64,000 bases of DNA from an uncultured Gammaproteobacteria bacterium (GCA_964450885.1 CAYVFE010000001.1:502572-566571); one strand, 5' to 3'; positions 1-34,141 are shown, numbered from the stretch's first letter. Notes: generated from the letters alone by a model not told the origin. A program made the numbers and translations.

Positions 1-43
1 TCTGTCTATAATTTCCAAATATTTATACAAAAAGGGACATCAG

Positions 44-955
44 GTGACAATCATTTGTGAGAAGCATGATAAGAGTCTTAAAAATATTGAGACCATAGAT
101 GGAATCAGAGTGATCCGTATTCCGATCTCCCATTCGGAAAGGAATAAGAAATTTGAGATTTGGAAATGGATTTTAAAAAACAGAGAACTAATAGATAGTT
201 TTGATGTAATCCATATCCACGATGTCTTTTTTTGGATTCTGCCATTGGTGTTCACTGTTAGAAGAGGTCATATTTATATGACATTTCATGGATACGAGGG
301 GTATCCTGTAAGATTCGGAAGTAAAATTCAGAAGAAAATAGCTGATATGTATAGCTCGGGAACTATTACTATAGGAGATTTTATTAATAAATGGTATGGT
401 TTGAAGTCTGATGCGGTAATATATGGAGGAGTTTTTAACATCAAAACAGGTTCAAATCGTCCAAAAAACCCTCTTTCCGCTATTTTTTTCGGAAGATTCG
501 AACCTCTTACAGGAATAGATCAATATTATAAAGCATACAAAATACTTAAGAATAGACATAAGACATTTGAATTTGAGGCTATCGGTAAAGGAAGGTATAG
601 GGATAAGTTAGAGGATATCTCTATTACACCATTTAAGTCAAAAATTACAGATCAGATTCAAAATAGCCGATTTATTTTTGTTTCAGGGTATCTTTCCATG
701 CTTGAGGCGATGATTCAAAAAAGACTTGTGATTGCAGTATATAATAATCCTCTAAAAAAAGATTATCTTTTGGATTCTCCCTTTAGAAAGTATGTGGATA
801 TATGTAGTTCGGGAAATGATATTGCAGAAAAGATTGAATTTTATATTAAAAATCCTAAAGAAGAGGAGAAGAAGATAGATAAAGCTTATTTATGGGCAAA
901 AGAGCAGACTTGGGAAAAGGTTGTCGATACGTACATCAATCTATGGCAAATATAA
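44..955 (+). CDS. GT-B fold glycosyltransferase (GT4/GT1-clan-like). No in-frame stop lies between base 2 and the GTG at 44, so the gene may be truncated at the 5-prime end by the window edge.
   Basis: C-terminal motifs typical of retaining GT-B enzymes: FFGRFEPLTGID..KAY (GRxxxxKG-like), EAIGKG, and the E-x7-E region LSMLEAMIQKRLVIA. The stop overlaps the next gene. Confidence 0.6.
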   Translation: MTIICEKHDKSLKNIETIDGIRVIRIPISHSERNKKFEIWKWILKNRELIDSFDVIHIHDVFFWILPLVFTVRRGHIYMTFHGYEGYPVRFGSKIQKKIADMYSSGTITIGDFINKWYGLKSDAVIYGGVFNIKTGSNRPKNPLSAIFFGRFEPLTGIDQYYKAYKILKNRHKTFEFEAIGKGRYRDKLEDISITPFKSKITDQIQNSRFIFVSGYLSMLEAMIQKRLVIAVYNNPLKKDYLLDSPFRKYVDICSSGNDIAEKIEFYIKNPKEEEKKIDKAYLWAKEQTWEKVVDTYINLWQI

Positions 956-3504
956 AAAAATCCCTGATAGTTACTGTCTATAACGAAGAGTCGTCAATAA
1001 ACTCTTTATTAGATTCGATATATACACAATCAGAATTTCCACACGAGTTGGTAATTGTGGATGGTGGATCTTTAGATAAAACCTTTGAGCTTATAAAAAA
1101 ACACAAGTTAGCTAGTAAAATTAAAGTCAAGGTTCTTGAAAAAAAAGGGAATATTGCAAAAGGACGTAATTTTGCTATAGAGAATGCAACTGGAGAGGTA
1201 ATTGCGATAACTGATGCTGGATGCAGATTAGATAAAAAATGGTTTGAGAATATCACGCGTCCATTCAGCGATAAAAAAATAGATATAGTAGCAGGGTATT
1301 ACAGAGGAAATCCAAAAAGTAATTTTCAAAAGGCCTTAGTGCCTTATGTATTGGTTATGCCAGAAAAAATCAATGAGAGTGAATTTCTACCCTCCGCACG
1401 TTCGATGGCAATGAGAAGAGGCGTATGGAAAAGACTTGGGGGTTTTTCGGAAAAACTTAATCAATCAGAAGACTATGACTTTGCAAGACGAGCAAAAAAT
1501 ATATTTAATATAAAATTTGTAAGAAAAGCTATTGTTTCATGGAGTCCTAGAGAAAGTATATTTTCGGCATATAAAATGTTTTATAAGTATGCATATGGTG
1601 ATATAAAGGCGGGAATTTTGAGACCTAGGGTTGTTGGAATGTTTGCGAGATATTTGTTTGCTGTTCTGTCAATTCTTGCTGCGAGGTTTGTGTCATTCGA
1701 ACTTCCGTATTATCTCAGTGGACTTTATTTACTAACATATGGATTCTGGTCGATCCATAAAAATTATAAATATGTCCGAGATAAATCAGCAGTGCTTTAT
1801 CTTCCGATGATCCAGATAGTGTCTGATATAGCAGTTATGGGCGGATCATTGTCCTCAGCCCTGGTACGTATAGCTAATTTTTTAGTAGTTTTTGCAAAAA
1901 AAGAAAGGAGCACTTTTCTGGCGATTTTGCTATTTATAGTTCTGACGTTAAGTATTATTAAATGGGGACTTCCTAGTAGTAGTCATCCATTCATATATCA
2001 CATGGATGAATGGCATCAGCTCCAATCTATTCGTAATTTATTCATACACCTTTCGCCAAATATGGAAGGGTCCGCGAATGGACCAATTTTTCATTTTGGG
2101 TTGAGCGGGATATATGTAGCGGTTCTTTCTATTTTAGGATTAGTAAATCCGTTTGTTATCAATTCTTCACTAGATAACTTAAATGCGCAAAATTTATTGT
2201 TTGTATATCTACGGTTAAGCACATTATTCTTCTCTTTGGGTGCAGTAGGCTTAATAATTTATATTCTCCGGAAGCAGCTCAAGGTTTCACTGATCGTTTT
2301 GCCAGTTGTTCTCTTCCTATTTTCCCCATCATGGATATCATTAAGTAATTATTTTAAATACGATATAGCTCTTTTGTTCTGGATAATATTATCGATTCTT
2401 TTGATATTCAAATTTTCGACAACGCCTAATTTGAAAAATTATTTACTTGCTGCTCTTCCAGTTGCTTTGGCGATAACTACAAAAATCAGTGCTCTGCCTC
2501 TATTTATAATCTATGTTTTAGCATTTTTTATATATAAGGTGAAACCTCTTAGTAACTTGAGATATCTTTTTCTGGGGACCATCTTATTTTTGACAATCTT
2601 TTTTGTTCTGGGGGTCCCGGACCTATTCTTGGGAACAGGAGACTACCATGAATATTTTTACTCAAATTTAGTCTCTGCCCCTTCGGAGACAGCCAACTAC
2701 AAATTGGGAACGTCATACTGGATCTATCTTTTTACAAATCAAATTCCGGTTCTGTTTGGTCTGTCAATCGTAATCCTCTTTGTCTTTTCGTTGACTTATT
2801 TTACAAAGATAACAATAGCCTCAGGTATAAAAAATATATTTAAAACGAAAAAGAACGAGGTATTTATTCTATCTTCTTTTATCATCTTTGCGGTAAGTCT
2901 TATCCCATTAAAACTTTTTATCGTAAATAGGAGTTTGGTTATTTTGCCGTTTGTCGTTCTATTTATCGGATTAATATTTCAGAAATTTATTGACAATAAT
3001 GCAGATAGAAAAAAGATAGTTCTTTTTATTGTGAGTGTTTTACTAATATTACAGATTGTCCAAGGGTCTTCTTGGATATTCATAAAATATAGTGATCCAA
3101 GAGAGATATCGTCTAAATGGATACTGGAAAATATCGATAAAGGTTCGGAGATAGGGATAGAAAGTGTTCCTATTTATCAATTTCTTCCGGATTTAGTACT
3201 TAAAGAATACTATCAGTCAGAGCGAAATATTGATACAGATATGAATTATAAATATCGGATAATAGACGGTGAAAGTGAGGTCTTGCCGGAATACATAGTT
3301 ATCTCAAATGTTGATATCGCTGCAAGCTATATACATAAATCCCCGAAGAAGAGTTTGATTTTAAGGATGAACAAAGAGGAATACGAAGTCATTAAGGAGT
3401 TTAAATTAAAAAGAGAAATAAATGATTTGTTCGCGACCAGGTTAGATTTTTTCATAAGTCTGCTTTCACCGACACCAAACATCTATATTTATGGTAAACC
3501 TTAA
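943..3504 (+). CDS. Fusion protein: N-terminal GT2 (GT-A fold) glycosyltransferase domain plus a ~600 aa polytopic membrane domain (GT-C / PMT-ArnT-like).
   Basis: GT2 hallmarks: SLIVTVYNEE...LVIVDGGSLDKT...ITDAGCRLD. Residues 250-870 are almost entirely hydrophobic helices. The likely start is the internal Met (MANIKK), which overlaps the upstream gene by 13 nt; the ORF track starts at 892. Confidence 0.65.
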   Translation: MANIKKSLIVTVYNEESSINSLLDSIYTQSEFPHELVIVDGGSLDKTFELIKKHKLASKIKVKVLEKKGNIAKGRNFAIENATGEVIAITDAGCRLDKKWFENITRPFSDKKIDIVAGYYRGNPKSNFQKALVPYVLVMPEKINESEFLPSARSMAMRRGVWKRLGGFSEKLNQSEDYDFARRAKNIFNIKFVRKAIVSWSPRESIFSAYKMFYKYAYGDIKAGILRPRVVGMFARYLFAVLSILAARFVSFELPYYLSGLYLLTYGFWSIHKNYKYVRDKSAVLYLPMIQIVSDIAVMGGSLSSALVRIANFLVVFAKKERSTFLAILLFIVLTLSIIKWGLPSSSHPFIYHMDEWHQLQSIRNLFIHLSPNMEGSANGPIFHFGLSGIYVAVLSILGLVNPFVINSSLDNLNAQNLLFVYLRLSTLFFSLGAVGLIIYILRKQLKVSLIVLPVVLFLFSPSWISLSNYFKYDIALLFWIILSILLIFKFSTTPNLKNYLLAALPVALAITTKISALPLFIIYVLAFFIYKVKPLSNLRYLFLGTILFLTIFFVLGVPDLFLGTGDYHEYFYSNLVSAPSETANYKLGTSYWIYLFTNQIPVLFGLSIVILFVFSLTYFTKITIASGIKNIFKTKKNEVFILSSFIIFAVSLIPLKLFIVNRSLVILPFVVLFIGLIFQKFIDNNADRKKIVLFIVSVLLILQIVQGSSWIFIKYSDPREISSKWILENIDKGSEIGIESVPIYQFLPDLVLKEYYQSERNIDTDMNYKYRIIDGESEVLPEYIVISNVDIAASYIHKSPKKSLILRMNKEEYEVIKEFKLKREINDLFATRLDFFISLLSPTPNIYIYGKP

Positions 3505-3507
3505 TGT

Positions 3508-4731
3508 ATGGGTTATTTCGGACAAACTATTAAAGGCATTTCATGGATAGGGGGGCTAAGAGGAGTGACCCGTGGATTGGCGTTTGTCAGGATTTTGATT
3601 CTGGCTCGGTTGTTGACCCCTTCTCAATTTGGTTTGTTTGGGGTAGCATCTTTTATGCTCGCGCTCGTAGAGGTTTTTACCGAAACAGGTATAAATATTT
3701 TCTTAGTTCAGCGGGAAGGTAAGATAGATAACTATTTAAGCTCTGCGTGGATAATTTCAATTTTTCGTGGATTCATAATTTTTACAGTCATACTCGTAAG
3801 TGCACCATTTGCATCTAGTCTTTTCAATGCGCAGGATGCTCTGGGTCTACTTATTCTTATAGCTTTTGTGCCTTTAGTCAGGGGTTTTATAAATCCAGCA
3901 GTCGTTTTGTATCAGAAGGAGTTGAGCTTTCATAAAGAATTTTATTTTAAGGCAACAGTATTATCATTTGAGGTTGTTGTTTCAGTAATACTAGCCTATC
4001 TACTGCGGTCTCCAGCAGGGCTTATCCTCGGACTTATAGCAAGCGCTATTTTAGAAGTCTTTCTTTCTTTTCTTTTAATAAAATCAAGACCTACATTTAA
4101 ATTTGAAAGAATGCGGTTTGTGGAAGTTTTGCATACTGGTAAGTGGGTTACAATATCAACAATTTTTAATTATTTATACCAGAATGTTGATGATATGGTA
4201 GTTGTGAGATTTTTGAATACCACAAGTCTGGGATTTTACCAAATGGCATACAAGCTTGCGATGCTGCCGATAACAGAGGTTGCAGATGTTGTAGGTAGAG
4301 TAACATTTCCTGTATATGCTAGAATTTCCGGAGATAAAAAGAGACTAAAAAAAGCATTTTATAAGACCATAGCAGCAAATTTAATTCTCTCCTCGCCTGT
4401 AGTTATTGTGTTTATTATATTTCCAAATCAAATAGTTCTATTGATTCTGGGGGAGAAATGGCTAGGTGCCGTGCCTGCATTTCAGGTGTTAGTGTTTTTT
4501 GGACTCGCTAGAGCAGTTACAAGTCCAGCGACGGTATTACTTCTGGCGTTAAAGAGGCAGGATGTTGTCGCAAAAATATCACTTGGCACCTTTTTGTTAA
4601 TGGCCTTGACGATTATTCCTTTTGTCACGATTTGGGGGATTTTTGGAGCAGGTCTCTCATCAGTTTTGGCGTCCGTCATTATGATCCCATTTGCGTATTA
4701 TTTCTCTCTTAGATACTTCTCGGATAAATAG
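3508..4731 (+). CDS. Polysaccharide biosynthesis flippase-like membrane protein (Wzx/MurJ, MOP superfamily).
   Basis: Roughly 12 predicted TM helices. The N-terminal LLTPSQFGLFGVASFMLALVEVFTETGINIFLVQ motif is typical of PST-family flippases. Confidence 0.5.
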   Translation: MGYFGQTIKGISWIGGLRGVTRGLAFVRILILARLLTPSQFGLFGVASFMLALVEVFTETGINIFLVQREGKIDNYLSSAWIISIFRGFIIFTVILVSAPFASSLFNAQDALGLLILIAFVPLVRGFINPAVVLYQKELSFHKEFYFKATVLSFEVVVSVILAYLLRSPAGLILGLIASAILEVFLSFLLIKSRPTFKFERMRFVEVLHTGKWVTISTIFNYLYQNVDDMVVVRFLNTTSLGFYQMAYKLAMLPITEVADVVGRVTFPVYARISGDKKRLKKAFYKTIAANLILSSPVVIVFIIFPNQIVLLILGEKWLGAVPAFQVLVFFGLARAVTSPATVLLLALKRQDVVAKISLGTFLLMALTIIPFVTIWGIFGAGLSSVLASVIMIPFAYYFSLRYFSDK

Positions 4732-4753
4732 TAAAGGAGTTTTTACCAGCAAA

Positions 4754-6181
4754 TTAATTTATTTTTTCTCCCACTATGACTACATATGTAAACAGGTCTT
4801 TAACTCCAAAATGAAATCCTGTCAGCTTGAAGTTTGAGTCTGCCATAATCTTTCTTATTTGAGATTTAGATTTGACTTTGGTTATTTCATGAGGATGGAG
4901 ACGAATATTTTTTTTCAATATGTTGTTGAGCAGAAAGTGTATCGAATTAAGAAAGATTACACTAAGACCAAAATATGGAGGCCAAAAAAGTACGATTTTC
5001 GAGTGTGATTTTAGTACTCTGTTGAATTCATCCAGAGTCTTTCTGATCTCTTTTTTATCCAGGTGCTCCATTACGCCTAGATTGTAGATGCCGTCATATG
5101 TGCTATTTTTTGCTGGAATTTTCATAATACTTCCATGGAGTATTTTGCAATCTTTTCCGTAAAGATGTTTGTATCTGTTTAATGCCTCTGCAGAGATATC
5201 AAGGGCAGTAACATCCATTATTTTTACTATATCGCTATCCACCTGACCACCTCCGCAGCCCGCATGCAGTATTTTTGACTGCATTTTGTAAGTTGATTTT
5301 ATATGCTGATTTAATGCAGGTTTTATAATGAATTTTCTATAAAACACAGCTAAAGTGTCGTAGAAAATTTTTCTTTTGTTTCTATCCATTTTCCAATATG
5401 CATCCCATTCCTTTTCCACGGTGCCTTTTTTTTGATGCGACTTAATACTTGCTGGATGCCAGATATATGAGTCACGGTAAATCTTTGATAGGTATGCAGT
5501 CTGAAATAGGAATTTAAAACTGTACCACGCGTCAGATATTTTCATCTTCGACGACCCGTAGGTTCTGGCAGAAAGTTTTACTGGAACTTCTTTAACCTTA
5601 TACCCGTTAAGAATGAGGATAAACAGGCTTTCAAAAAAAAATGAGTATCCTGTAGACGTTATGAGCTTAAATACCTCTTTGTCCACTTTTTTTAAATTGT
5701 AAAGCCTGAAAGCGCTAGTGGCATCAAAGGGAATGTGAAGAATTTTTTTAGTCAAGAAGTGTCCAGTTATGGCTAGTGTTTTGCGGAATATATTCCAATC
5801 CGAGATTCCATCACTTTTCATATAGCGGGAAGCGATTACTATATCTGATCGGCCCTTTTTATCGATGAGTTTTTTTATAGTTTTTGGGTTATGGGTAAAA
5901 TCTGCATCCATCGTAATAAGGGTCTTGTACCCTTTTTCGTAAGCGTATCTTATTCCATCAGCATGAGCACTTCCGATGCCCAGCTTACTTCCTCTTTTAA
6001 TCAATTTTATATGTGCATCTTTTTTTTGAAGTGCACTAATTTTTTTAGAAGTGCCATCTGGAGAGTTATCGTCGATAAAAAGAATATCTATGCTGGGCAA
6101 ATATTTTTTAATTTTCAAATATAAGGGTTGAATATTTTCTACTTCTTTGTAGGTGGGAATAAGTACCAGAGTATTGTTCAT
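4754..6181 (-). CDS. Fusion protein: GT2 polyprenyl-phosphate sugar synthase-like domain (DPM1/ArnC-like) plus a C-terminal class I SAM-dependent methyltransferase.
   Basis: N-terminus: LVLIPTYKEVENI...LFIDDNSPDGT...TMDADFTHNP, a DPM1-like DxD region. C-terminus: LHAGCGGGQVDSD...ALDIS...LHGSIMKIP...DGIYNLGVMEHL, Rossmann MT motifs I-III. Confidence 0.65.
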   Translation of the reverse strand: MNNTLVLIPTYKEVENIQPLYLKIKKYLPSIDILFIDDNSPDGTSKKISALQKKDAHIKLIKRGSKLGIGSAHADGIRYAYEKGYKTLITMDADFTHNPKTIKKLIDKKGRSDIVIASRYMKSDGISDWNIFRKTLAITGHFLTKKILHIPFDATSAFRLYNLKKVDKEVFKLITSTGYSFFFESLFILILNGYKVKEVPVKLSARTYGSSKMKISDAWYSFKFLFQTAYLSKIYRDSYIWHPASIKSHQKKGTVEKEWDAYWKMDRNKRKIFYDTLAVFYRKFIIKPALNQHIKSTYKMQSKILHAGCGGGQVDSDIVKIMDVTALDISAEALNRYKHLYGKDCKILHGSIMKIPAKNSTYDGIYNLGVMEHLDKKEIRKTLDEFNRVLKSHSKIVLFWPPYFGLSVIFLNSIHFLLNNILKKNIRLHPHEITKVKSKSQIRKIMADSNFKLTGFHFGVKDLFTYVVIVGEKIN

Positions 6182-6271
6182 GAATCTTAATAAGTACGGA
6201 TATAAAATCTAATAATTCTAACAAAAGATAAAATTAATTTCTATGCATCGATTGCATATTTTTGAATAGAA

Positions 6272-7516
6272 TCATACAATTTCCAGCGCCGGCAAAGGAA
6301 AAATGAAATGTCCTCCCGATTTTAGGTAATCTTTTTCACGTTGCAAAAATTCTTCTTTAAAGAACCATGGAAGTACTAGCATATAGTCTGGTTGTTCTTT
6401 TCTTGCTTGATCTTCCGAGATAATGGGGATGCCTACAGAAGCAATATTTGTTCCCCATTTTTCGGGATTCCTTTCGACGGCCTTATCAATAAGCTTGTTA
6501 TCCAGATCGAAATATTGAAGTAGTGTATTTCCACGGGTTGACGCACCGTAAATATAAATCTTCTTTCCATTCTCGTGTTCCCTTTTTATAAATTCATAAA
6601 CGTCTTTTTTAATTGATTTTATTCTTTTTGCAAAGTCTGTGTATATTTTTTGCCTTTTTAAATTTATAAGACTTTCGAGCTGCAGCTGCTCACGAACATA
6701 ATTTGTTATTGGAAACTTATCCTTTTTGCAAATATATGTTCTAAAGCTCCCTCCATTAAGGTCTCTTAATTCCAAATCAAATACTTCTAAGCCATGTTGG
6801 CCTAACAGGTTTTGAAGAGAGGTTAAAGAATAGTACTCTAGGTGCTCATGAACTATATTATCGAATGCGTTTTGAGTAAGCATTTTAACGAGATAGTTTT
6901 GCTGTATTACAAAAACCCCATCATCTTTTAATATTTTGATTACATCAGACACAAATTTATTTGGGTGCTCCATATCATAGAAACATGAAATCGCTGTTAC
7001 TATGTCTGCTTTATTATTGACTAAAAAAGGACTAACTGATTCATAATTAAAAAAATCCGACACAACTGCATTGGCGTGTTTTTTACTATACTTTGCAAAT
7101 TTCTTTATGGGGTCAACAGCTAGTCTATAGTAGCCTTTAGGATAATTTGAAAGCAACGTTCCATCGTTTGCGCCAATATCAACCACTGTAAGTTTTTCTT
7201 TCTTCCCTGCGATTTTTAGGGTTTTTCTGACTACATCAGATAACTCGTCTTGCATCGTCTTGTTTATTCCGGATTTATAACCATAATTTTCGCTATAAAG
7301 TAGAGAAGTTGGGGCATTGTGTTTTAGTTGCAGGAGATGGCAGTCTTTGCAAAAGATTAGTTTTAAGGGAAAGCTTTGAGGCTTTTTATTGCTTTTGGTG
7401 AATTCAGAAAGATACAATTTGCCTAAATTTAGGATGGTTGAAAGATTTTGCGATTTGCAGGACCTACAGTATCTGATCGATATATCTTTACTTTTCATCA
7501 ATTTTAATATCGTCAA
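6272..7516 (-). CDS. SAM-dependent methyltransferase with an N-terminal Cys4 zinc ribbon (domain layout of NDP-hexose C-methyltransferases such as TylCIII).
   Basis: CRSCKSQNL...CKDCHLLQL, then VVDIGANDGTLL (motif I), then a C-terminal alpha/beta extension. Confidence 0.55.
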   Translation of the reverse strand: MTILKLMKSKDISIRYCRSCKSQNLSTILNLGKLYLSEFTKSNKKPQSFPLKLIFCKDCHLLQLKHNAPTSLLYSENYGYKSGINKTMQDELSDVVRKTLKIAGKKEKLTVVDIGANDGTLLSNYPKGYYRLAVDPIKKFAKYSKKHANAVVSDFFNYESVSPFLVNNKADIVTAISCFYDMEHPNKFVSDVIKILKDDGVFVIQQNYLVKMLTQNAFDNIVHEHLEYYSLTSLQNLLGQHGLEVFDLELRDLNGGSFRTYICKKDKFPITNYVREQLQLESLINLKRQKIYTDFAKRIKSIKKDVYEFIKREHENGKKIYIYGASTRGNTLLQYFDLDNKLIDKAVERNPEKWGTNIASVGIPIISEDQARKEQPDYMLVLPWFFKEEFLQREKDYLKSGGHFIFPLPALEIV

Positions 7517-7568
7517 TTATATATTAAAAATACTGTAAAACAAATAAGAAGCTCATCGTTAAAGTTGG

Positions 7569-7577
7569 TATAATCAC
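7569..7577 (+). promoter_or_regulatory. Extended -10 promoter element (TGgTATAAT) for the GT-C gene at 7610; this region is shared divergently with the methyltransferase gene.
   Basis: The sequence aaagTTGGTATAATcac lies about 33 nt upstream of the ATG. No good -35 element is present. Confidence 0.35.
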
Positions 7578-7609
7578 TAGGTAAATACGTGAGCACAGGG
7601 ATTTAATGC

Positions 7610-9148
7610 ATGAAATATAAATATATTGTTATTATTCTAATCTTTTGTTTTTCTCTATTCATAAGGCTGGCGACTTTAAATCAGATCGGAAGAACATGGG
7701 ATGAGCCTCAGTTCATAGAAGAGGGATATAGAATGGTGGAATTATTTAAAGCAGGGGATTTAAATAATAGTTTTTTTTATACGACTTACGATCACCCGCC
7801 ACTTATCAAATACATATTTGGAATTACATCGTATCTTGATATAAAAGAAACGAAACCGAATGGCGATGTTATTTTTAATTATGATTACACTTATTCTAGA
7901 ATATTATCTGCGACTCTCTTTTCTATAGGCGTGGTAATGACGGTGCTTTTGGGGTGGAGACTGTTTTCACCATTTGTGGGGGGTATTTCAGGTGTTATTC
8001 TGGCTATGCTGCCATTTTCTGTTGGTCTTTCGCAATTAATCAGTGCGGAGAGTTTGAAGATATTTATCTATCCTATTGCAATTTATTCAATTTTGTTGCT
8101 TGTTGAAAAGTTTTCATTAAAAAGAGCTATAGTTGTTGGGTTAATAATAGGCATCGCTCTTCAAGTCAAACAGTCAAACGGTTTACTGTTCCTGGTGCTC
8201 GTGGGCATGCTGATAATTAGATACTTTAGTTTAGGTAAAAAGAAAAGGCTAGGATACATTAAGAGTAGGATTGCTGGATTTTTTGTAGTAGTAGTCGGCA
8301 GTATGCTTTCCTTTATAGCGCTGTGGCCTCAAGCGATATTCAATTTGGACAAGATTTATAAGATTCATGACAAATTTTGGGGTGTTGAATTTTCTCCAAA
8401 ACCATGGCTTATTACGATGTCTGTACCCGAAGTTTTCTTTGGAAGACTGATCATAACGCCGAATTTTTATTATCTTGTCTATTTTTTCATAAGTACACCA
8501 GTGGTTATTTTAGCCCTGTTTTTTGTAGGTATTTGGAAGATAGTAATGTCAAAAAACTGGAAGCTTTATATTCTGATTATTTGGTTTTGTGTTCCTTTTC
8601 TCCTATCTCTTTATTCATGGAGACAGCATGGGCTTCGATATCTTATTGAAATTTATCCAGCCTTAGCGCTTATTTCCGCTATAGGATTTGATTCTTTGGC
8701 CAGTAGGCTTACTACCAGCCTTCGCAATAAAGCGTTGATATTTGGACTAGTTATTATTTATCTTTTCGCATCTCTTTTATACGTGAAACCATATTATTTA
8801 GAGTACTATAATGAATTAGTGGGGGGTACAGGTAATGTTTACAGGAATAACTGGTTTCAAATAGGCTGGTGGGGACAGGGATTAAGAGAGGCTGGTCTAT
8901 ATATAATCAACAATTCTGAAAATGATTCTGAGATAGGGCTTGCTATTTCTCCCGATCATGTTTTGCCCCGTTCTGAAAATTTAATTTACTCAGATTTTGT
9001 GGAATCCAAAAATTATGATTATGTAATAGTAAATCATTATCACATTATCCGTGATGGATTTGATGATAGCAGCATAAGGGCTGATTATAATTTAATTTAT
9101 CAGGTCAAAGCTGATGGGGCAACACTGGTCTATATATATAAGAAATGA
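7610..9148 (+). CDS. GT-C fold polyprenyl-phosphate-sugar-dependent membrane glycosyltransferase (PMT/ArnT, GT39/GT83-like).
   Basis: Multiple TM helices. The first extracytoplasmic loop carries the conserved acidic motif RTWDEPQF..EEGY...YDHPPL, characteristic of PMT/ArnT/Stt3-type GT-C enzymes. Confidence 0.55.
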   Translation: MKYKYIVIILIFCFSLFIRLATLNQIGRTWDEPQFIEEGYRMVELFKAGDLNNSFFYTTYDHPPLIKYIFGITSYLDIKETKPNGDVIFNYDYTYSRILSATLFSIGVVMTVLLGWRLFSPFVGGISGVILAMLPFSVGLSQLISAESLKIFIYPIAIYSILLLVEKFSLKRAIVVGLIIGIALQVKQSNGLLFLVLVGMLIIRYFSLGKKKRLGYIKSRIAGFFVVVVGSMLSFIALWPQAIFNLDKIYKIHDKFWGVEFSPKPWLITMSVPEVFFGRLIITPNFYYLVYFFISTPVVILALFFVGIWKIVMSKNWKLYILIIWFCVPFLLSLYSWRQHGLRYLIEIYPALALISAIGFDSLASRLTTSLRNKALIFGLVIIYLFASLLYVKPYYLEYYNELVGGTGNVYRNNWFQIGWWGQGLREAGLYIINNSENDSEIGLAISPDHVLPRSENLIYSDFVESKNYDYVIVNHYHIIRDGFDDSSIRADYNLIYQVKADGATLVYIYKK

Positions 9149-11340
9149 ATAAAAAAATATCGGTAATAATAGTTCACTACAACGTTAAAAAAGAGTTATT
9201 CGATTGCATAGAGTCTATTTATAAATCTAAACCGAGAGTAGATTTTGAAATAATTGTAGTGGATAACGACGAAGTAAAAATAATCGAAAAAGATTTGAGG
9301 AAAAAATTCTCAAAAGTAATTTATATCAAGAATAAAAATAACGGTTGGGGTGGAGGAGCCAACAAGGGGGTTAAGTATGCAAAAGGAGAATATCTCTATT
9401 TCTTAAATCCAGATACGATTTTTATGAACAATGCGCTTGATGCAATATATGATTTTGTCAAAAGAAAAAAAGATATAGGAATAGCATCGTCACTTTTATT
9501 TGACGAAGAAAAAAAAGTCTATCCACTCCAAGGTACAAAACTATTGAATCCTTTGAATGCAATATTCTCGCTTTCTTTCATAAATAAGTTTTTTCCGAAC
9601 AATCCGATATCAAAAAGATTCTGGATGAGAGGGAGAAGTAAAAAAGATATTTCAGAAGTTGAATCTTCCACGCTCAGTGCAGCTCTTATAAAAAAAGAAG
9701 TCTTTATAGAGGCTGGGAAGTTTGATGAGAACTACTTTTTGTATTATGAAGAATATGATCTCAGCAAAAGATTAAAGAGAATAGGATACAAGAATTTTAT
9801 AGTTCCTAGTTCGAAGGTTATTCATATATGGGAGGCAAGCGCCATAAAAACAGGAAGAACGAAAGAATTTATGGATAATAGCCGAAAGTACTACTTCAAG
9901 AAATATTATGGTTCTATATTAGGTAATCTAATCGAACTGGTTCTCGGACTTAATAAAAAAAATCTGCTTGTGTATTTATTTTTGTTGGGAATATTTTCGA
10001 TAGGAGCATATCTGCGGCTGAGCGCCTTGGATAAATATGTGCCATTCATCGGAGACCAGGCCTGGTTTTATTTATCGGCGCGAGACTTTATATTAACAGG
10101 TGAAATCCCTCTTTTGGGGATCACTTCTAGTCACACCTGGATACACCAAGGTGCGCTATGGACTTATTTACTAACTCCCGCTCTTTTTCTCTCGAGTTAC
10201 AATCCTATTTCGGGATTTTACCTTTCATCGCTGTTGGGAATATTAACAGTAGCTGTATCCTATAAGCTCGCTAGAGATTTTTTTTCAAGAACGTTTGGAC
10301 TAATATTTGCAGCTCTTATTGCCGTATCTCCTCTTGTAGTATTCCATTCAAGGTTTGCATATCACACAACACCAATACCTTTATTCGTTATCTTGTTATT
10401 TTATTCGATGAGTAAGTGGTTAAAGGGGAGTGTTAACTATTTTCCTATTGTACTTTTTTCAATGAATGTTCTTTATAACTTAGAGCTTGCTACAGTGATA
10501 TTCTGGCCAGTTATCATAGCGTATCTGTTATATGGATTCACAAGAAAGAAAGAATATGCATTAGGTTTAGTTAGAAAAAATATAGTATTTTGGTCTTTGT
10601 TGGCTTTGGTAATTCCAATGGTGCCAGTTCTAGTTCATGACTTGAAAAGCGGATTTCCTCAAACAGTAGTCTTTGGAGGATGGTTTGGATATAAACTGCT
10701 GCAATTTGTGGGTATTATTGAGAAAAGCGCGGTTGATGAGAGCTCAATTAGACTCGCTGTTAATTTTTTTATTGAAAAGCACAATCAGCTCTTTTTTACT
10801 TTTAATCAATACATATCTTTTGGAGTGTTTTTAGTAGCCATGGTAATTTCCTTTACAGTGTCTTTAAAAAGATCTTTGTTGTCCAATTTTGGAATAGTTT
10901 TCATGCTAACTTTCATGGGACTTTTGGCATACTTTATGTCAGGCGTACCCTCAGAAGCATATTTAGTTATGCTTTTTCCCGGACTGTTATTTATCCTGGC
11001 GTTTGCTATTTACCAACTTAGAAATAGAGTTCTAATCTCCATTGTGATGATGATTATTTTTGCTACAAATATTTATTATTTAATAACAACTAATTACCTT
11101 ACTATAGATACTGTTACTTTATCAGAAAAAATTTCTGCCTCTAAGGAGATTTTGGAACTAACAAACAGTAACGAATTAAATCTGATCTACAAAGGGTCTG
11201 GTGAGGAGTTTCAAAGCAGTAGAATGCCTTATGAATATCTAGTATGGTGGAGAAGTGGAATGAATCTATCTGAGGCGGGGAGAAAAGTATTGGTTACAGA
11301 GCAGGGAGGTAATATAATTATTAGTAGAATAAATGAGTAA
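9145..11340 (+). CDS. Fusion protein: N-terminal GT2 domain plus a C-terminal ~470 aa polytopic membrane (GT-C-like) domain.
   Basis: ISVIIVHYNVKKEL...IIVVDNDE...YFLNPDT (GT2), then about 12 TM helices. It overlaps the upstream gene by 4 nt. Confidence 0.65.
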   Translation: MNKKISVIIVHYNVKKELFDCIESIYKSKPRVDFEIIVVDNDEVKIIEKDLRKKFSKVIYIKNKNNGWGGGANKGVKYAKGEYLYFLNPDTIFMNNALDAIYDFVKRKKDIGIASSLLFDEEKKVYPLQGTKLLNPLNAIFSLSFINKFFPNNPISKRFWMRGRSKKDISEVESSTLSAALIKKEVFIEAGKFDENYFLYYEEYDLSKRLKRIGYKNFIVPSSKVIHIWEASAIKTGRTKEFMDNSRKYYFKKYYGSILGNLIELVLGLNKKNLLVYLFLLGIFSIGAYLRLSALDKYVPFIGDQAWFYLSARDFILTGEIPLLGITSSHTWIHQGALWTYLLTPALFLSSYNPISGFYLSSLLGILTVAVSYKLARDFFSRTFGLIFAALIAVSPLVVFHSRFAYHTTPIPLFVILLFYSMSKWLKGSVNYFPIVLFSMNVLYNLELATVIFWPVIIAYLLYGFTRKKEYALGLVRKNIVFWSLLALVIPMVPVLVHDLKSGFPQTVVFGGWFGYKLLQFVGIIEKSAVDESSIRLAVNFFIEKHNQLFFTFNQYISFGVFLVAMVISFTVSLKRSLLSNFGIVFMLTFMGLLAYFMSGVPSEAYLVMLFPGLLFILAFAIYQLRNRVLISIVMMIIFATNIYYLITTNYLTIDTVTLSEKISASKEILELTNSNELNLIYKGSGEEFQSSRMPYEYLVWWRSGMNLSEAGRKVLVTEQGGNIIISRINE

Positions 11341-12079
11341 GTTAACTGTCGTTATTATTACAAAAAATGAAGAATCAAATATAGATTCTTGTCTCAAGCA
11401 ATTAGTCTTTGCAGACGAAATAATATTGATTGATGATAATTCAACAGATAAAACTTTAGAGATTGCAAAAAAATATAAAGTAAAAGTTATTAGCAATAAA
11501 TTGTCTTCGTTTTCGCATCAAAGAAATTTAGCATTGGAGAGAGCATCAAATAGTTGGGTGCTATTTATTGATGCAGATGAAACAATAGATGAAAAGTTGA
11601 GAGAAGAGATTTTAGAAAGAATATCGGAAGAGACATACGATGGTTACTACATAAAACGAAAAGATATATTTTTAGGATACGAAATGAAGTATGGAGACTT
11701 AGAGGATGTACGGATTTTGCGACTTGGAAGAAAAAATAGCGGAATGTGGGAAGGAGATGTGCATGAAAAGTGGAGAATCAAGGGTAAAACATCAAATTTA
11801 AAAAATTCGCTAGGTCATCATTCTCACCAGAACCTGTTTCACTTTATAGATAAAATTAATTACTACTCGTCGATAAGAGCAAATGAATTAAAGCAAGGCA
11901 ATATAAAATCTTCTTTTCTGACGATTGCTCTTTATCCGATGTTTAAATTTGTAATACTATATTTTTCGAAAATGGGATTTAGAGATGGACTGCCGGGATT
12001 TATTCATGCACTTTTTATGAGTATGTATTCATTTTTAGTTCGTGGGAAGTTATATCTGCTATACAAGGATGAAAAGTAA
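11333..12079 (+). CDS. GT2 family glycosyltransferase (WaaE/KdtX-like small GT2).
   Basis: LTVVIITKNEESNI...ILIDDNSTDKT...LFIDADE. There is a C-terminal amphipathic/TM segment. The gene overlaps the upstream gene by 8 nt. Confidence 0.7.
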   Translation: MSKLTVVIITKNEESNIDSCLKQLVFADEIILIDDNSTDKTLEIAKKYKVKVISNKLSSFSHQRNLALERASNSWVLFIDADETIDEKLREEILERISEETYDGYYIKRKDIFLGYEMKYGDLEDVRILRLGRKNSGMWEGDVHEKWRIKGKTSNLKNSLGHHSHQNLFHFIDKINYYSSIRANELKQGNIKSSFLTIALYPMFKFVILYFSKMGFRDGLPGFIHALFMSMYSFLVRGKLYLLYKDEK

Positions 12080-12139
12080 AGATACTCTATTTTCTATATT
12101 TGCAGCTATTTTATTTTCTCTTTATCTATTACATTTATT

Positions 12140-13705
12140 ATGCAGGGTAGATTACTGTTTTTATTTGCCACTTTAATCGGATTATTTTCATATTCTGTTT
12201 TGGTGTTGGGATTGCTGGGTTCTATAAATAAAATCTCTGTTTTGTTTGTTACCATAGTGTTTTTTGGCATAATCTTTTATTCTTTTTTTAAACATCCGGA
12301 ATCTGTAAAAAGTCTATTTGTACAAGCTAAAAAAAATCTTTTTTATTTTTCTATACTTTTTGGTCTGGCACTGATCAATTTTGTTGGAATGTTAGGTCCT
12401 GAGCTGGGATTTGATGCTCTTTGGTATCATCTTGTTATCCCCAAGTTGTATGTAGCCAGTGGTGCGATTGAATTCATCCCCAACGGTCTACTTTACTATT
12501 CTGTAATGCCAAAGCTTATTGATATTTTATATATACCCGCCTTAATGTTTTCAGACGAGACTACAGCAAAATTTATACATTTTCTATTTGGTCTTTTAGC
12601 GACCATAGGAACTTATAAAATAGCAAATTTATTTTTAGATAAAAAGCTTTCTTATCTTGCAGCTGTGATATTCTATTCAAATCTGGTTGTAGGATGGCTG
12701 TCGATAACTGCTTATATAGACCTTGGTCGAACCTTTTTCGCAACGCTTTCGATTTATTTTTTTCTTCAATACTTTAAGTTAAGAGAGCCCAAATACTTAT
12801 TTGCGTCATCGATATTAGTTGGTCTTGAAATTAGTACTAAGCTATTGGGATTTTCGACACTAATTTCCCTATTCATCGTGCTTTTGATTTTTTCAACAAA
12901 AGCAACGATAGGTGACAAAATCAAGAATGGGTTATTATTCCTTGTTATCCCCATACTAATTAACGCTATCTGGTTCATCTTTGCCTATGTAAATACAGGG
13001 AACGCTTTTTATCCTTTCTTTTCTGAAATCTATCCATCAAAAATTCTAGCTTCAAGCATTAGCCCTATCATCATGAAAGATACTCTCGATTTATTTTTAT
13101 TCTCAGCTGATCCAATATCACCTATATATTTAATTGTTACACCGCTTTTGATCTTAATGTATAAGAAAATGTCCTATGAGATTAAGATAATTTGCGCTAT
13201 TTTGGTGATAAACCTTCTAATATGGAATTTCATACCGCAAAAGAACTCAAGATTTTTTCTACCATATTTACCTTTATTTTCAGCACTTGTTGTTTGGGTT
13301 ATAAGTGTATCAAGGGAGAGAATAAAAAAGACCTTATTAGTGGTAGTTTATTTAACAATAATTGTAAATTTAGTATATCGAGGTGTAGCTAATTTTAAAT
13401 ATTTACCGGTGATTTTAGGTTTGCAAACAAAAGAAGAGTTTTTGGTTAAGTATCTAAATTTTGACTATGGAGACTATATAGATGTTGGTAGTAGCGTAAA
13501 AAAAATTGTGGGAGAAAACAGGGTTCTGGTAAAAAATATCCACAATCTGTATTATGTAGATTTCCCCTTTGACCACGAGTCGTGGGAAAGAAAAATCAAT
13601 TATAAGTACATTTTAATTAGAGGTAATCTGAACAACAAAAAAGGATATAATCTAGTATATAGCGATCCAATAACGAATACGTATCTTTATGAGTCAGATA
13701 AATAG
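12140..13705 (+). CDS. Polytopic membrane protein, GT-C-like (ArnT/PMT-like).
   Basis: At least 12 TM helices and a periplasmic-loop aromatic/acidic motif (FDALWYH). No soluble catalytic domain is present. Confidence 0.4.
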   Translation: MQGRLLFLFATLIGLFSYSVLVLGLLGSINKISVLFVTIVFFGIIFYSFFKHPESVKSLFVQAKKNLFYFSILFGLALINFVGMLGPELGFDALWYHLVIPKLYVASGAIEFIPNGLLYYSVMPKLIDILYIPALMFSDETTAKFIHFLFGLLATIGTYKIANLFLDKKLSYLAAVIFYSNLVVGWLSITAYIDLGRTFFATLSIYFFLQYFKLREPKYLFASSILVGLEISTKLLGFSTLISLFIVLLIFSTKATIGDKIKNGLLFLVIPILINAIWFIFAYVNTGNAFYPFFSEIYPSKILASSISPIIMKDTLDLFLFSADPISPIYLIVTPLLILMYKKMSYEIKIICAILVINLLIWNFIPQKNSRFFLPYLPLFSALVVWVISVSRERIKKTLLVVVYLTIIVNLVYRGVANFKYLPVILGLQTKEEFLVKYLNFDYGDYIDVGSSVKKIVGENRVLVKNIHNLYYVDFPFDHESWERKINYKYILIRGNLNNKKGYNLVYSDPITNTYLYESDK

Positions 13706-14909
13706 AACTGCTTTTATACTATACATAGCCCTGACATGTTTTTTTCCATTAGGTGTTCTTGTTCGATTTACTCCAGTTGTAAACTTCAATATTTATCCAC
13801 AGGACGTTATAGTATGTGGAATTTTTCTACTAACTCTTTTTTCTTATTTTAAGAATAAGAAAAAGCACTACAAAACGCTTTTTTACTCAATCACAATTTT
13901 TAATGTGATAGCCATCCTTTCCTTAGTTATTAACATTTTCCGGCTAGATCAAAATGAACTATTTGTTTCCTTTTCTTATTTAATAAGATTGGATGCATAT
14001 ATTTCGTTGTTGTTTATAGGTTTATTTGGTTTTAGTAAATATAGAACAAGGATTTTAGGAAAATTATTCATGATTGCATCGTGTTTATTTATTATTTTTG
14101 GTTTTGCTCAATACTTTTTTTATAATAACTTGCGGAACTTGTATTACTTAGGTTGGGACGAGCATTTGTACAGACTTTTTTCTACATTTTTAGATCCTAA
14201 TTTTGCTGGAGTTCTTTTCGTTCTTATCGCATTGGTTTTTCTGGGAAAGATATTGGATAAGAATTCCCATAGCGCGGCGAGCCTAATGGTAGATATAGCC
14301 TTGATTATAGCTTCGGTTCTTGCAATTATTCTTACCTATTCTCGAACTGCACTAATAGCGCTTTTTGCGAGCGGACTCTTTTTTCTTACAATAAGAAGAA
14401 AAATTAAACTTTTAGTTATCTCGGTAGTAGTTTTGTTGACAGTAGCATTCTTAGTATCAGATTTTTCAGTCGAAGGAATGAATCCAATAAGAATAGCCTC
14501 ATCGGAAGCAAGAATACATTCAATGAATGAGGCGGTAGATATATTTACAGACAGTCCAATTTACGGAATAGGCTTTAATGCCTATAGATATTATCAGCAA
14601 GATAAAGGATTTAGAAAGGACACGCTATCTATTTCGAGCAATGCAGATGCCGGGACAGACAACAGTTTTCTTTTCATCTTAGCAACGACCGGAATCATTG
14701 GATTTATTGCTTATTTGAATATCTGGTTCGTAGTCTTAAAAAAGATAAGCAAAAAAGGCCCTGAAAAAAGTTATGTTTCTTATGCGATAATTATTGCACT
14801 ATTTACCGGGAGTTTATTTGTGAATGCTTTGTTCTATGCTCCTATAATGTTGTGGGTATTTTTATATTTAGGAAGACAGATAGATCCGGATGACAACTAT
14901 TCTTTGTAG
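13689..14909 (+). CDS. O-antigen ligase / polymerase family (WaaL/Wzy_C) membrane protein.
   Basis: Polytopic. It has a large periplasmic loop with a conserved R/H and the IYGIGFNAY (GxGxGxF-like) motif typical of the Wzy_C domain. Overlaps the upstream gene by 17 nt. Confidence 0.55.
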   Translation: MSQINRTAFILYIALTCFFPLGVLVRFTPVVNFNIYPQDVIVCGIFLLTLFSYFKNKKKHYKTLFYSITIFNVIAILSLVINIFRLDQNELFVSFSYLIRLDAYISLLFIGLFGFSKYRTRILGKLFMIASCLFIIFGFAQYFFYNNLRNLYYLGWDEHLYRLFSTFLDPNFAGVLFVLIALVFLGKILDKNSHSAASLMVDIALIIASVLAIILTYSRTALIALFASGLFFLTIRRKIKLLVISVVVLLTVAFLVSDFSVEGMNPIRIASSEARIHSMNEAVDIFTDSPIYGIGFNAYRYYQQDKGFRKDTLSISSNADAGTDNSFLFILATTGIIGFIAYLNIWFVVLKKISKKGPEKSYVSYAIIIALFTGSLFVNALFYAPIMLWVFLYLGRQIDPDDNYSL

Positions 14910-15628
14910 TCTACCTTGATTTCTTTTGAGGTTTTTATGCCTGCTTCGTTGGTTGCTTCTACAGTTATTGTATTTTCACCTTCGCTAAGTTCTAGCCTGT
15001 AAGAGTATTCACCCTCGCTATCAACAATCGCCCTAAAACCATTAACAGTAATAGAGTTATTAGGATCAGTCTTACCAGATACTGTAATTGTCTTATCTGC
15101 CTTAGTAAACGATGACTTGTCCGAAGGGGCACTTATCTCAAGTTCTGGCTTGTCTGAAGACCTCGTGATACTATAATCTTGGGAAAAATCACTTTCCTTA
15201 TCATCGAGAAAGTATTTTGCGTTTATGGTATTCTCGCCATTTCGAAGATCAATCCTTTTGAATTCAAAATTATTACTACCATCCAGCGATATGTCGTCTA
15301 CCTCTTTTTCGTTAACATATAATATAATTTTCCCCTCATTGTATGACGAACTGCCAGCGATATTAATTTGTGCACTTGATGTAGCGTTCTGGATTCCATT
15401 TAGGGTAGGTGCAGCAAGAAATTGCTCCTGCAGGATAGATTCGCTAGACTCTGTTTCATCTCCTCTGATACCAAATATTATGTTTCCAAATGCGCCGAGT
15501 AGGGCACCTGAAAATTGAATTAGTAGAAAAATTATAATAAGTGTTCCCAGACCAAAGAAAATAAATTGTTTCTTGCTCTGTTTTTCGGCGTATCTGGAAA
15601 GTCTAGACGATCTTATTCTTCTTGCCAT
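14897..15628 (-). CDS. Membrane-anchored surface protein: basic cytoplasmic tail, one TM helix, extracellular Ig-like beta domains.
   Basis: MARRIRSSRLSRYAEKQSKK, then a TM helix, then Ser/Thr/Asn-rich beta-strand repeats (ITVSGKTDPNNSITVNG..., TITVEATNEAG). Its 3-prime end overlaps the convergent ligase-like gene by 13 nt. Confidence 0.45.
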   Translation of the reverse strand: MARRIRSSRLSRYAEKQSKKQFIFFGLGTLIIIFLLIQFSGALLGAFGNIIFGIRGDETESSESILQEQFLAAPTLNGIQNATSSAQINIAGSSSYNEGKIILYVNEKEVDDISLDGSNNFEFKRIDLRNGENTINAKYFLDDKESDFSQDYSITRSSDKPELEISAPSDKSSFTKADKTITVSGKTDPNNSITVNGFRAIVDSEGEYSYRLELSEGENTITVEATNEAGIKTSKEIKVDYKE

Positions 15629-24939: not shown

Positions 24940-25677
24940 TTATGCAGCGTTAGCTGCGCTATTTATTTTTTGGGGCAAGAATTCCTTAAAATTTCCATCA
25001 GATTGAACAACCATTAAATGGCTTTCCCCATCCTGTTTGTTAAGTTTTGCTCCATACATGGCCTCATCAGCTTTAGCTATAGATTCTTCTGGATTATTCA
25101 AATCTAGTAGTATTGCCCCAGCAGATATCCGTATTTGAGTATTTTCATTAAGCCTGTTCCACCAACTTTGTAGTCCGTCATTATCTGGATCGTCTAGAAT
25201 TATCGCGAATTCATCTCCCCCAAATCTAGCGACTATGTCTGTTCCTCTGGTGCTGCTCTTTAGTTCGGAAGCGATTAATTTTAGGTATTCATCACCTGCC
25301 TCATGTCCTTGCGAGTCATTAATCTCTTTCAATCCGTCTGCGTCTATAAATATTGCGTTGAGTTTGCCGCCAGATCTTTTGCTCAAATTAATTCGTTGTT
25401 TTAATTCTTTATCAAACCCTTTTCTATTGAGTAGCCCAGTTAGCTCATCGATTCCAGACCTTTCCTTTTCCCGTTCAAGGCGTATCTCTGTAGCTACTAA
25501 ATTTCTAGCACTTCTGTTAGCGGAGACTAGTTCTAATTTAGTTTTATCCAAGCTTTCATGTAGGTTATCATCCTCCAAAGCAGTCAATTTTTCGTCAACT
25601 CTATTTTGTATATCGTGATCTTTGCTAGTTTTTATAACTGGTGGTAACTCAACCTCTGGTCCTCCTTCTTCCATCAA
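24940..25677 (-). CDS. Stand-alone GGDEF-domain diguanylate cyclase with an intact I-site.
   Basis: LTGLLNRKGF, active site GGDEF, and an RxxD I-site (RGTD) 5 residues upstream. The N-terminal ~70 aa are charged coiled-coil with no recognisable sensor domain. Confidence 0.85.
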   Translation of the reverse strand: MMEEGGPEVELPPVIKTSKDHDIQNRVDEKLTALEDDNLHESLDKTKLELVSANRSARNLVATEIRLEREKERSGIDELTGLLNRKGFDKELKQRINLSKRSGGKLNAIFIDADGLKEINDSQGHEAGDEYLKLIASELKSSTRGTDIVARFGGDEFAIILDDPDNDGLQSWWNRLNENTQIRISAGAILLDLNNPEESIAKADEAMYGAKLNKQDGESHLMVVQSDGNFKEFLPQKINSAANAA

Positions 25678-34069: not shown

Positions 34070-34076
34070 AATTGAT

Positions 34077-34085: not shown

Positions 34086-34100
34086 CACGCACAAATCTCA

Positions 34101-34129: not shown

Positions 34130-34141
34130 TATGAGCATTGT

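Follow-up and report, generated by a model that had tools for sequence, protein, structure and literature searches.

What does a gene cluster crowded with membrane-embedded glycosyltransferases of the GT-C type assemble, and from which sugar donors? The question is raised by positions 1–14909 of a 64-kb stretch recorded as DNA of an uncultured Gammaproteobacteria bacterium (GCA_964450885.1, CAYVFE010000001.1:502572-566571), the whole of which is called the window below. A first-pass annotation had listed ten consecutive genes here and proposed that GT-C enzymes glycosylate targets outside the cytoplasm, drawing on polyprenyl-phosphate sugars. All ten open reading frames (ORFs; g01–g10, Table 1) are present where they had been placed. 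The 15-kb stretch is a genuine surface-glycan assembly gene cluster, and we consider it probable that this variable locus encodes a hybrid assembly line in which polyprenyl-phosphate sugars and four GT-C modules are combined with conventional cytoplasmic assembly.

The ORFs of the window were scanned against Pfam and NCBIfam, and weak GT-C calls were backed by structure and profile-profile comparison. The scans agree with the earlier inventory: one GT-B gene, two GT2-GT-C fusions, one GT2 that stands free and one fused to a methyltransferase, a further methyltransferase, a Wzx flippase, and a Wzy_C protein. The “three further polytopic membrane proteins” of that inventory reduce to just two extra GT-C proteins (g06 and g09), the others being the Wzx and Wzy_C proteins already counted.

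The evidence on donors centers on g04. Its N-terminal part (g04N; the suffixes N and C mark the terminal parts of fused proteins) is a GT2 domain (81 bits, aa 1–230), followed by a class I S-adenosylmethionine (SAM) methyltransferase domain (Methyltransf_25/11, aa ~295–400). Among PDB sequences, g04N matches the dolichyl-phosphate mannose synthase (DPMS) of Pyrococcus furiosus at E 3.9e-23 over aa 5–220, with the entire catalytic domain covered; GtrB and ArnC come next. The MDADxxHxP, SRY, W..FRK, and R..G.SK.K stretches of the P. furiosus enzyme are conserved, and in NCBIfam the top-scoring models are PpgS and PgfS (about 1e-14); the enzymes matched in both databases all produce polyprenyl-phosphate sugars. 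By its sequence, g04N is thus a DPMS/GtrB/ArnC-like homologue of dolichyl/polyprenyl-phosphate-sugar synthases. In 25 of the 120 best relatives of g06, the g06-type GT-C protein is fused in frame to an N-terminal GT2 domain of the g04N type (proteins of 745–785 aa, e.g., a 752-aa gene in the sister locus L062), and the N-terminus of all 25 matches g04 and not g02N, g07N, or g08. As a Rosetta-stone fusion, this is the strongest argument for g04 as the putative supplier of the g06 donor, and it lends indirect support to a lipid-phosphate-linked sugar as the donor of the GT-C modules. In sister genomes a g04N-type GT2 sits right after g02; in the window, the putative synthase g04N, the flippase g03, and the GT-C protein g06 are encoded together within 5.6 kb (3508–9148). 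The polyprenyl-phosphate-sugar reading is supported because g04N is a DPMS homologue and its type of GT2 is fused to g06-type GT-C proteins; together with the GT-C calls and the absence of a nearby priming enzyme, both described below, this speaks for the extracytoplasmic GT-C glycosylation proposed initially.

All four membrane modules (g02C, g06, g07C, and g09) are assigned to the GT-C superfamily by sequence profiles and predicted structures. Sequence evidence alone is marginal, as two of the four Pfam matches to GT-C families fall under the curated cut-off: PMT_2 scores 23.6 bits in g06 and 23 bits in g07 (cut-off 26.1). The PMT match of g02 (27.4 bits, cut-off 22.7) and the PMT_2 match of g09 (36.5 bits) exceed theirs. 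In searches of PDB sequences with family profiles, g06 found the protein O-mannosyltransferase (Pmt) structure 9i5k at E 1.8e-4, g09 only ArnT at E 0.19, and g02C had no match. The modules could not be placed by sequence alone, and structure prediction was therefore needed; structures were predicted for g02 and g07, while g06 and g09 were placed by sequence and profile. In profile-profile comparison (hhalign), the four modules are mutually homologous at 91.8–96.5% probability (92–96.5% for the g09 family against the g02C, g07C, and g06 families, and 91.8% for g06 against g09). Relatives of g06 carry PF13231/PF02366 and are named “glycosyltransferase family 39” by NCBI.

The polytopic fold of the predicted g02 C-module superposes on solved GT-C enzymes, as does that of g07 (scores of 24.7 for ALG12, 22.9 for Pmt4, 22.7 for AglB, and 21.8 for ArnT); AftA, AftB, AftD, and PimE are also among the structural matches of the two models. 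In g02, a GT2 domain (aa 1–222) is followed by helices (228–320), the GT-C module (aa ~321–730), and a C-terminal alpha/beta domain (731–853). In g07, GT2 (aa 1–235) is joined directly to GT-C (aa ~271–650), again with a small alpha/beta domain at the end, as in many GT-C enzymes. Each of the four families has an invariant acidic residue (Asp or Asp-Glu) just past the transmembrane (TM) helix that opens the first outer loop: D355-E356 in MDEWH of the g02 family (55 sequences), R28, D31, and E32 in GRTWDE of the g06 family (12 sequences), D304 in GDQxWF of the g07 family (57 sequences), and E88, D92, W95, Y96, and H97 in ELGFDALWYH of the g09 family (8 sequences). The basic residues K472, K514, and R663 within the g02 module are invariant as well. 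By helix order and the positive-inside rule, the first-loop acidic motifs would face outward. Hence, the GT-C nature of the membrane domains, which the first-pass annotation had left to be checked with domain models, is borne out by Pfam, profile-profile comparison, and predicted structures. The g02C family has few members (103 representatives among 1.84 billion at E ≤ 1e-30), and in public annotation these proteins are called only “glycosyltransferase” or “hypothetical.”

The cytoplasmic transferases tell a different part of the story. The GT4 protein g01 (Glycos_transf_1, 28.6 bits in ORF 44–955, and Glyco_transf_4) is 344 aa long in full on L001 (1406–2440), an identical 13.4-kb contig, where it starts 79 nt left of window position 1; in ~30 sister clusters its orthologues form the left end, preceded by parB-lepB. 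Glycos_transf_2 scores 75 bits in g02, 74 bits in g07, and 85 bits in g08 (E 8.7e-24), and g08 lies directly downstream of g07 orthologues in >20 sister loci (43–51% identity). The predicted GT2 domains of g02 and g07 resemble the sugar-extending GT-A enzymes PcManGT, hyaluronan synthase (HAS), K4CP, and GlfT2. The g02 domain superposes on PcManGT over 272 and on hyaluronan synthase over 294 aligned residues; DPMS, GtrB, and ArnC score only 14–16 against the GT2 domains of the two proteins. An acidic general-base residue is found in inverting GT-A enzymes acting on hydroxyl acceptors (PMC12595478), and the acidic pair is kept in both g02 (E176-D177) and g07 (E203 and D205). A role of these two domains as lipid-sugar synthases is ruled out by this ranking and by the retained pair. 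On sequence and modeling grounds, g01, g02N, g07N, and g08 are best read as four chain-extending Leloir transferases. Fusion of GT2 to GT-C is not obligatory, since many genomes encode the two parts of g02 as individual GT2 and GT-C genes; among the ~72 full-length representatives of the g02C family at 50% identity, ~20 are fused and ~52 stand alone. At 55166–56734 (+), 40 kb from the locus, the window encodes a further membrane GT2 of 522 aa, which is synthase-like (Glyco_tranf_2_3/Glyco_trans_2_3).

The flippase g03 is a clear member of the MOP family (Polysacc_synt_3, 224 bits, E 2.4e-66; NCBIfam MOP flippase, 1.5e-60) and adjoins g02 in most sister loci; its score, like that of Wzy_C in g10, exceeds the model cut-off by a wide margin. 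An ABC exporter of the Wzm/Wzt type is not in evidence, as no ORF of the locus or window has an ABC transporter domain. As the GT2 domains of g02 and g07 look like ordinary extenders and occur alongside Wzx and Wzy_C, conventional cytoplasmic assembly most likely also takes part, which would make the system a hybrid and not a pure monosaccharide-donor system. Of the original proposal, the GT-C logic and the possibility of methylated sugars are upheld.

Could the cluster then be a conventional Wzx/Wzy pathway, with priming on undecaprenyl diphosphate by a phosphoglycosyltransferase from another part of the genome and with GT-C enzymes that contribute nothing but side-chain decorations? We regard this as possible, though doubtful. 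Wzx, Wzy_C, and several Leloir transferases are indeed present, pathway genes are scattered in genomes of the Candidate Phyla Radiation (CPR), and the inspected DNA amounts to 65 kb of a 588-kb contig. Wall polysaccharides of the Bacillus anthracis type do combine Wzx/Wzy assembly with GT-A/flippase/GT-C decoration (PMC8035078). Yet no phosphoglycosyltransferase (Bac_transf, MraY/WecA type) was found when all ORFs of 100 aa or more across the 64 kb and the 1.4 kb upstream were examined; the 20 accessory families most frequent in ~45 sister clusters do not include one either, and there is no Wzz/PCP gene. Moreover, the GT-C modules outnumber what side-chain decoration normally requires, and two of them are joined to chain-extending GT2 domains. 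The absence of an initiating transferase, asserted at the outset, thus extends over the 64 kb and 1.4 kb upstream. The first-pass annotation had also named a conventional Wzx/Wzy cluster with an initiating transferase nearby as the finding that would speak against it; Wzx and Wzy_C are there, and the initiating transferase is not.

The sugar-modifying part of the locus is represented by g05 (Methyltransf_13, 23, and 14), which matches MtmC in full length (E 7.6e-49), TcaB9 (1e-36), and KijD1 (2e-31). The Zn-site cysteines C17, C20, C57, and C60 and the catalytic Glu-His pair (in an H-E-H stretch) are conserved, and Val occupies the position of TcaB9 Tyr222. From this similarity, g05 is a full-length homologue of nucleoside diphosphate (NDP)-hexose 3-C-methyltransferases. 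No other gene of the cluster is as well conserved as g05 (58–72% identity in sister loci); it is called as 408 aa on L001, and its start is probably at 7498. Enzymes of the TcaB9/MtmC type need a 4,6-dehydratase, and no such partner of g05 is encoded in the window. Common inserts in sister clusters include RmlB/GMD-like, RmlC, and RmlD-like genes, a DegT aminotransferase, a UDP-GlcNAc 2-epimerase, a UDP-glucose dehydrogenase, and GDP-heptose-type genes. The earlier statement that NDP-sugar modification genes are missing does not hold in the face of g05, and the argument built on this gap falls with it, as the sister clusters routinely carry such genes. In one of them (L063, 18005–21661), a GHMP kinase, a SIS isomerase, a nucleotidyltransferase, a HAD phosphatase, and a transaldolase-like protein resemble a GDP-heptose pathway inside the glycan locus. 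Within the window, a phosphogluco/mannomutase and a bacterial-type PGI (60186–63048, +) could provide hexose phosphates for sugar activation.

The outer-face candidates are g10 and, with less certainty, g11. Besides Wzy_C (69.2 bits, cut-off 31.7), g10 has weak matches to PEP_O_lig_1 and RfaL; its family shares the invariant motifs WDEHxYR, TYSR, GxGFN..R, and GTDxS.LF, and it follows g09 in 8 sister loci. A phmmer search of PDB sequences gave no match for g10, which may be either a polymerase or a ligase. The Ig-like gene reported to adjoin the locus at 14897–15628 exists: g11 has Glucodextran_B (E 5.4e-21), Big_6, and Big_3_5 domains, Ser/Thr-rich stretches, and an N-terminal membrane anchor made of a K/R-rich tail and a TM segment (aa 18–54). 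Orthologues with 38–39% identity are convergent to g10 in L043, L049, and L058, and the link of g11 to the glycan system, resting only on this conserved adjacency in three sister loci, is uncertain.

The main rival as regards the acceptor is protein O-glycosylation, in which Ser/Thr of an S-layer, pili, or g11 would be modified by the PMT-like GT-C enzymes, by the Wzy_C protein in the role of a PglL/WsaB-like O-oligosaccharyltransferase, or by both; we consider it unlikely. The first-loop Asp-Glu pair of g02C and g06 is that of the PMTs, but neither the g02 nor the g07 model has a beta-rich insertion of the MIR type. A possible membership in GT39 would draw on the PMT match of g02 (27.4 bits) and on the Asp-Glu pair of g02C and g06; ALG12, AglB, and ArnT match the two models as well as Pmt4 does. 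The best NCBIfam match of g10 is a putative O-glycosylation ligase, but the ligase-model scores stay far under their cut-offs (49 vs. 188 bits). Synteny of the Ser/Thr-rich g11 is limited to 3 of ~45 loci, partly as the examined loci end before that point. The likeness of g04N to PgfS, which serves adhesin glycosylation in Streptococcus mutans, would also suit a protein acceptor; four Leloir transferases, Wzx, and the NDP-sugar genes of sister loci suit a polymer better than a short O-glycan.

It is highly improbable that the GT2-fused membrane modules are non-catalytic anchors, scaffolds, or export conduits for a cytoplasmic polymer, as might be suggested by the superposition of the g02 GT2 domain on membrane-integrated GT2 enzymes (272 residues of PcManGT and 294 of hyaluronan synthase) and by fusions to both GT-A and GT-B partners, since the invariant loop acids (MDEWH in 55 sequences, D304 in 57) with the basic K472, K514, and R663 form the pattern expected of active GT-C enzymes, and the same modules stand alone in ~52 of ~72 full-length representatives.

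Several observations weigh against the hybrid assembly line as we propose it. In 9 of the 120 relatives, the g06-type GT-C protein is fused to an N-terminal GT4 (GT-B) domain (~885 aa; P0124–P0129, P0142, P0146, and P0157), and hence fusion partners are not always donor synthases; this GT4 is the “second GT4” of 30 sister clusters, located there upstream of g07, and the window has no copy of it. The GT2 domains fused to GT-C in the locus itself are not DPMS-like, a pairing for which the model does not account. The priming enzyme could be encoded elsewhere on the 588-kb contig, outside the 64 kb and 1.4 kb searched. The outward orientation of the acidic loops follows from helix positions and charge and not from model coordinates. 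In g10, Asn replaces the His of seven aligned homologues at aa ~314–326 (SHAxAGTDNSFLF stretch). Finally, neither a GtrA-type flippase nor a GacJ-like activator was found in the locus.

With these points on record, the hybrid assembly line could operate as follows. At the cytoplasmic face, the GT2 domain of g04 would charge polyprenyl phosphate with a sugar taken from a nucleotide sugar, and the methyltransferase fused to it, together with g05, may provide methylated or C-branched sugars. The GT4 enzyme g01 and the GT2 domains of g02, g07, and g08 would lengthen a lipid-linked saccharide in the cytoplasm; Wzx (g03) would flip the lipid-linked sugar or sugars; and g10 would polymerize or ligate units at the outer face. 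There, polyprenyl-phosphate carriers would donate the sugars or short glycans that g02C, g06, g07C, and g09 add to the polymer or to the final acceptor, which is most probably a wall-associated polysaccharide. The donors, the order of steps, the priming on a monophosphate, and the acceptor are what we infer from sequence and comparison rather than from biochemistry.

A bolder extension, which we think quite unlikely to hold as a whole, takes the GT-A-GT-C and GT-B-GT-C fusions to be single-polypeptide “inside-outside” machines, in which the cytoplasmic domain would make or extend the lipid-linked sugar used by the attached GT-C module across the membrane. This reading would be best exemplified by the DPMS-GT-C fusions of sister genomes. 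The cluster would then build an envelope polymer peculiar to the lineage, with many C-methyl and O-methyl sugars and primed on polyprenyl monophosphate without a phosphoglycosyltransferase, which would define the surface of Levybacteria and possibly serve host attachment.

The cluster is not confined to the window. Approximately 45 syntenic loci share the order parB-lepB(-)-GT4 ... g02-[g04N-type GT2]-g05-Wzx ... g07-g08-(g09 or g06)-Wzy_C, with variable inserts consisting of methyltransferases, the second GT4, PTPS_related and other large membrane proteins, and NDP-sugar genes. Surface-polysaccharide loci typically show such mosaic inserts and a low G+C content (here 0.31–0.37 in the locus vs. 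~0.40 in the rest of the window). Sister clusters hold four to seven GT-C-like genes each; for the accessory membrane families (PTPS_related, ~650-aa), single-sequence hhalign against the g09 profile was uninformative. The cluster sits at a fixed chromosomal site in Levybacteria, and four or more GT-C-like genes are normal there. Thus, a density of four or five GT-C proteins in 15 kb, initially deemed unusual, is the rule in this lineage. The mycobacterial aftA-embCAB region is likewise dense in GT-C genes.

The host itself was identified from the same comparisons. Full-length relatives of g02 (~40–45% identity) come from metagenome-assembled genomes (MAGs) of Candidatus Levybacteria and other Patescibacteria, and the rest of the window is dense housekeeping DNA (dnaE, gatCAB, murT/gatD, ruvABC, a class A PBP, polX, and four tRNAs). 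By gene content and sequence relatives, the host is therefore a Levybacteria-like member of the CPR (Patescibacteria), which would make it an uncultivated, ultra-small bacterium. Many MAGs with the Levybacteria-type cluster (e.g., L003, L014, L019, and L020) are titled “uncultured Gammaproteobacteria” or “Pseudomonadales,” and L045 is titled “Limisphaerales”; these are likely mislabeled or misbinned records. The left border of the cluster is fixed by L001, where g01 is preceded by lepB (-) and parB. On the right, g11 is followed by the ATP synthase operon.

Table 1. Genes of the surface-glycan cluster and the adjoining Ig-like gene, with window positions.
Gene	Position	Strand	Predicted product
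g01	1-955	+	GT4 (GT-B) Leloir glycosyltransferase, 5' end cut by window edge
g02	943-3504	+	GT2 + GT-C module + C-terminal alpha/beta domain
g03	3508-4731	+	Wzx/MOP-family flippase
g04	4754-6181	-	Polyprenyl-phosphate-sugar synthase-like GT2 + class I SAM methyltransferase
g05	6272-7516	-	NDP-hexose C-methyltransferase, TcaB9/MtmC/KijD1 family
g06	7610-9148	+	Stand-alone GT-C (PMT_2/GT39-like) transferase
g07	9145-11340	+	GT2 + GT-C module + C-terminal alpha/beta domain
g08	11333-12079	+	Small GT2 Leloir glycosyltransferase
g09	12140-13705	+	Stand-alone GT-C (PMT_2) transferase
g10	13689-14909	+	Wzy_C-family polytopic protein, polymerase or ligase/O-oligosaccharyltransferase type
g11	14897-15628	-	Membrane-anchored Ig-like surface protein; membership in the system uncertain

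Other parts of the window yielded separate observations. At 38091–40335 (-), an ATPgrasp_ST protein (E 2e-62) with a C-terminal Zn_protease/aspartyl-protease-like domain overlaps a 7TM_transglut membrane protein; together they resemble a two-gene peptide-ligase/membrane module. Amid housekeeping genes, dnaE and gatB flank a small GGDEF diguanylate cyclase (24940–25677, -). The mechanically called PolX ORF (32300–34285, -; TTG start) crosses an opposite-strand tRNA-Asp (34142–34216, +), and its true start must be further downstream. No Pfam family was found in two ORFs, of 544 aa (45149–46783, +) and 378 aa (57956–59092, +). The former was considered as a fifth GT-C protein and ruled out (hhalign probability of 0.1%); between the latter and a holA-like gene, a 132-aa PhageMetallopep protein (E 2e-21) is encoded at 59094–59492 (+).

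A large part of bacterial diversity belongs to the CPR/Patescibacteria, whose members live attached to other cells. To our knowledge, there is no published chemical description of a CPR surface, and our full-text literature search found no paper on GT-C enzymes, mannosyltransferases, or their fusions in CPR/Patescibacteria. The cluster offers a concrete gene set for studying the surface chemistry of Levybacteria. Its natural fusions physically tie a lipid-sugar synthase to its presumed GT-C user, a kind of evidence that is rare for assigning GT-C partners, and could be compact structural subjects for the coupling of synthesis, flipping, and transfer.

Among known systems, the mycobacterial arabinogalactan and lipoarabinomannan (LAM) machinery offers a precedent in which neighboring GT-C genes use polyprenyl-phosphate sugars for a wall polymer outside the membrane. 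Its components (aftA-embC-embA-embB; PpgS-Rv3779; Ppm1/PimE/Mpt) are echoed here by the AftA, AftB, AftD, and PimE structural matches and by the match of g04N to the PpgS model. In contrast, there is no sequence-level orthology, the locus has no DPA/UbiA-type genes, the mycobacterial side lacks Wzx/Wzy_C, and the envelopes differ. With the protein O-mannosyltransferases of GT39 (yeast Pmt1/2/4 and actinobacterial Pmt), the modules share the GT-C fold, the loop-1 Asp-Glu (in g02C and g06), and the PMT/PMT_2 matches; they differ in having no MIR domain, in identities of 9–14%, and in the polysaccharide-cluster context, a protein acceptor being putative here. TcaB9, MtmC, and KijD1 have in common with g05 the full-length three-domain architecture, the Zn Cys4 site, and the Glu-His pair, but act in antibiotic deoxysugar pathways, whereas g05 lies in a surface-glycan context with no 4,6-dehydratase in the window and with Val for Tyr222.

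The established GT-A/flippase/GT-C logic is exemplified by GacI/J/K/L (PMC8035078), and the same triad of synthase, flippase, and GT-C enzyme is found in GtrA/B/C, CsbB-GtcA-YfhO, and ArnC-ArnT; the flippase here is of the Wzx type, as is GacK (PMC8035078). GtrB and ArnC are homologous to g04N, and the GT-C modules superpose on ArnT. Unlike these three- and four-component systems, whose separate genes add one monosaccharide, the locus has four GT-C modules, and in its relatives synthase and GT-C form a single polypeptide; the word “fusion” does not occur in the review of such systems (PMC8035078).

By our comparison, the likeness to WpsA-J of Lactococcus is closer still. There, a C55-P-GlcNAc primer is extended, flipped by Wzx, polymerized, and attached by GT-C enzymes (PMC9574508). 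The four-component cwps pathway of L. lactis (WpsA/B, WpsC-F, WpsG as Wzx, WpsI, and WpsJ) involves GT-A loading on polyprenyl monophosphate, Leloir extension, Wzx-type export, and polytopic GT-C-type enzymes for polymerization and for transfer to the outer acceptor, with no phosphoglycosyltransferase for this branch (PMC9574508), which is the constellation proposed here. The present locus differs in several ways. It lacks a WpsB/GacJ-like activator, a Wzz-like WpsH, and a rhamnan/ABC-transporter half; its synthase is DPMS-like and not GacI-like and is fused to a methyltransferase, two of its four GT-C modules are fused to GT2, its polymerase candidate is a Wzy_C protein, and its host belongs to the CPR. 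Since Gram-positive bacteria and mycobacteria are already known to follow this logic, the advance would be one of scope and architecture, not of principle: what is new is the host lineage, the GT-C density, the fusions of GT-C modules to GT-A and to GT-B domains, and the finding that the gene most conserved in the cluster encodes a TcaB9-type C-methyltransferase.

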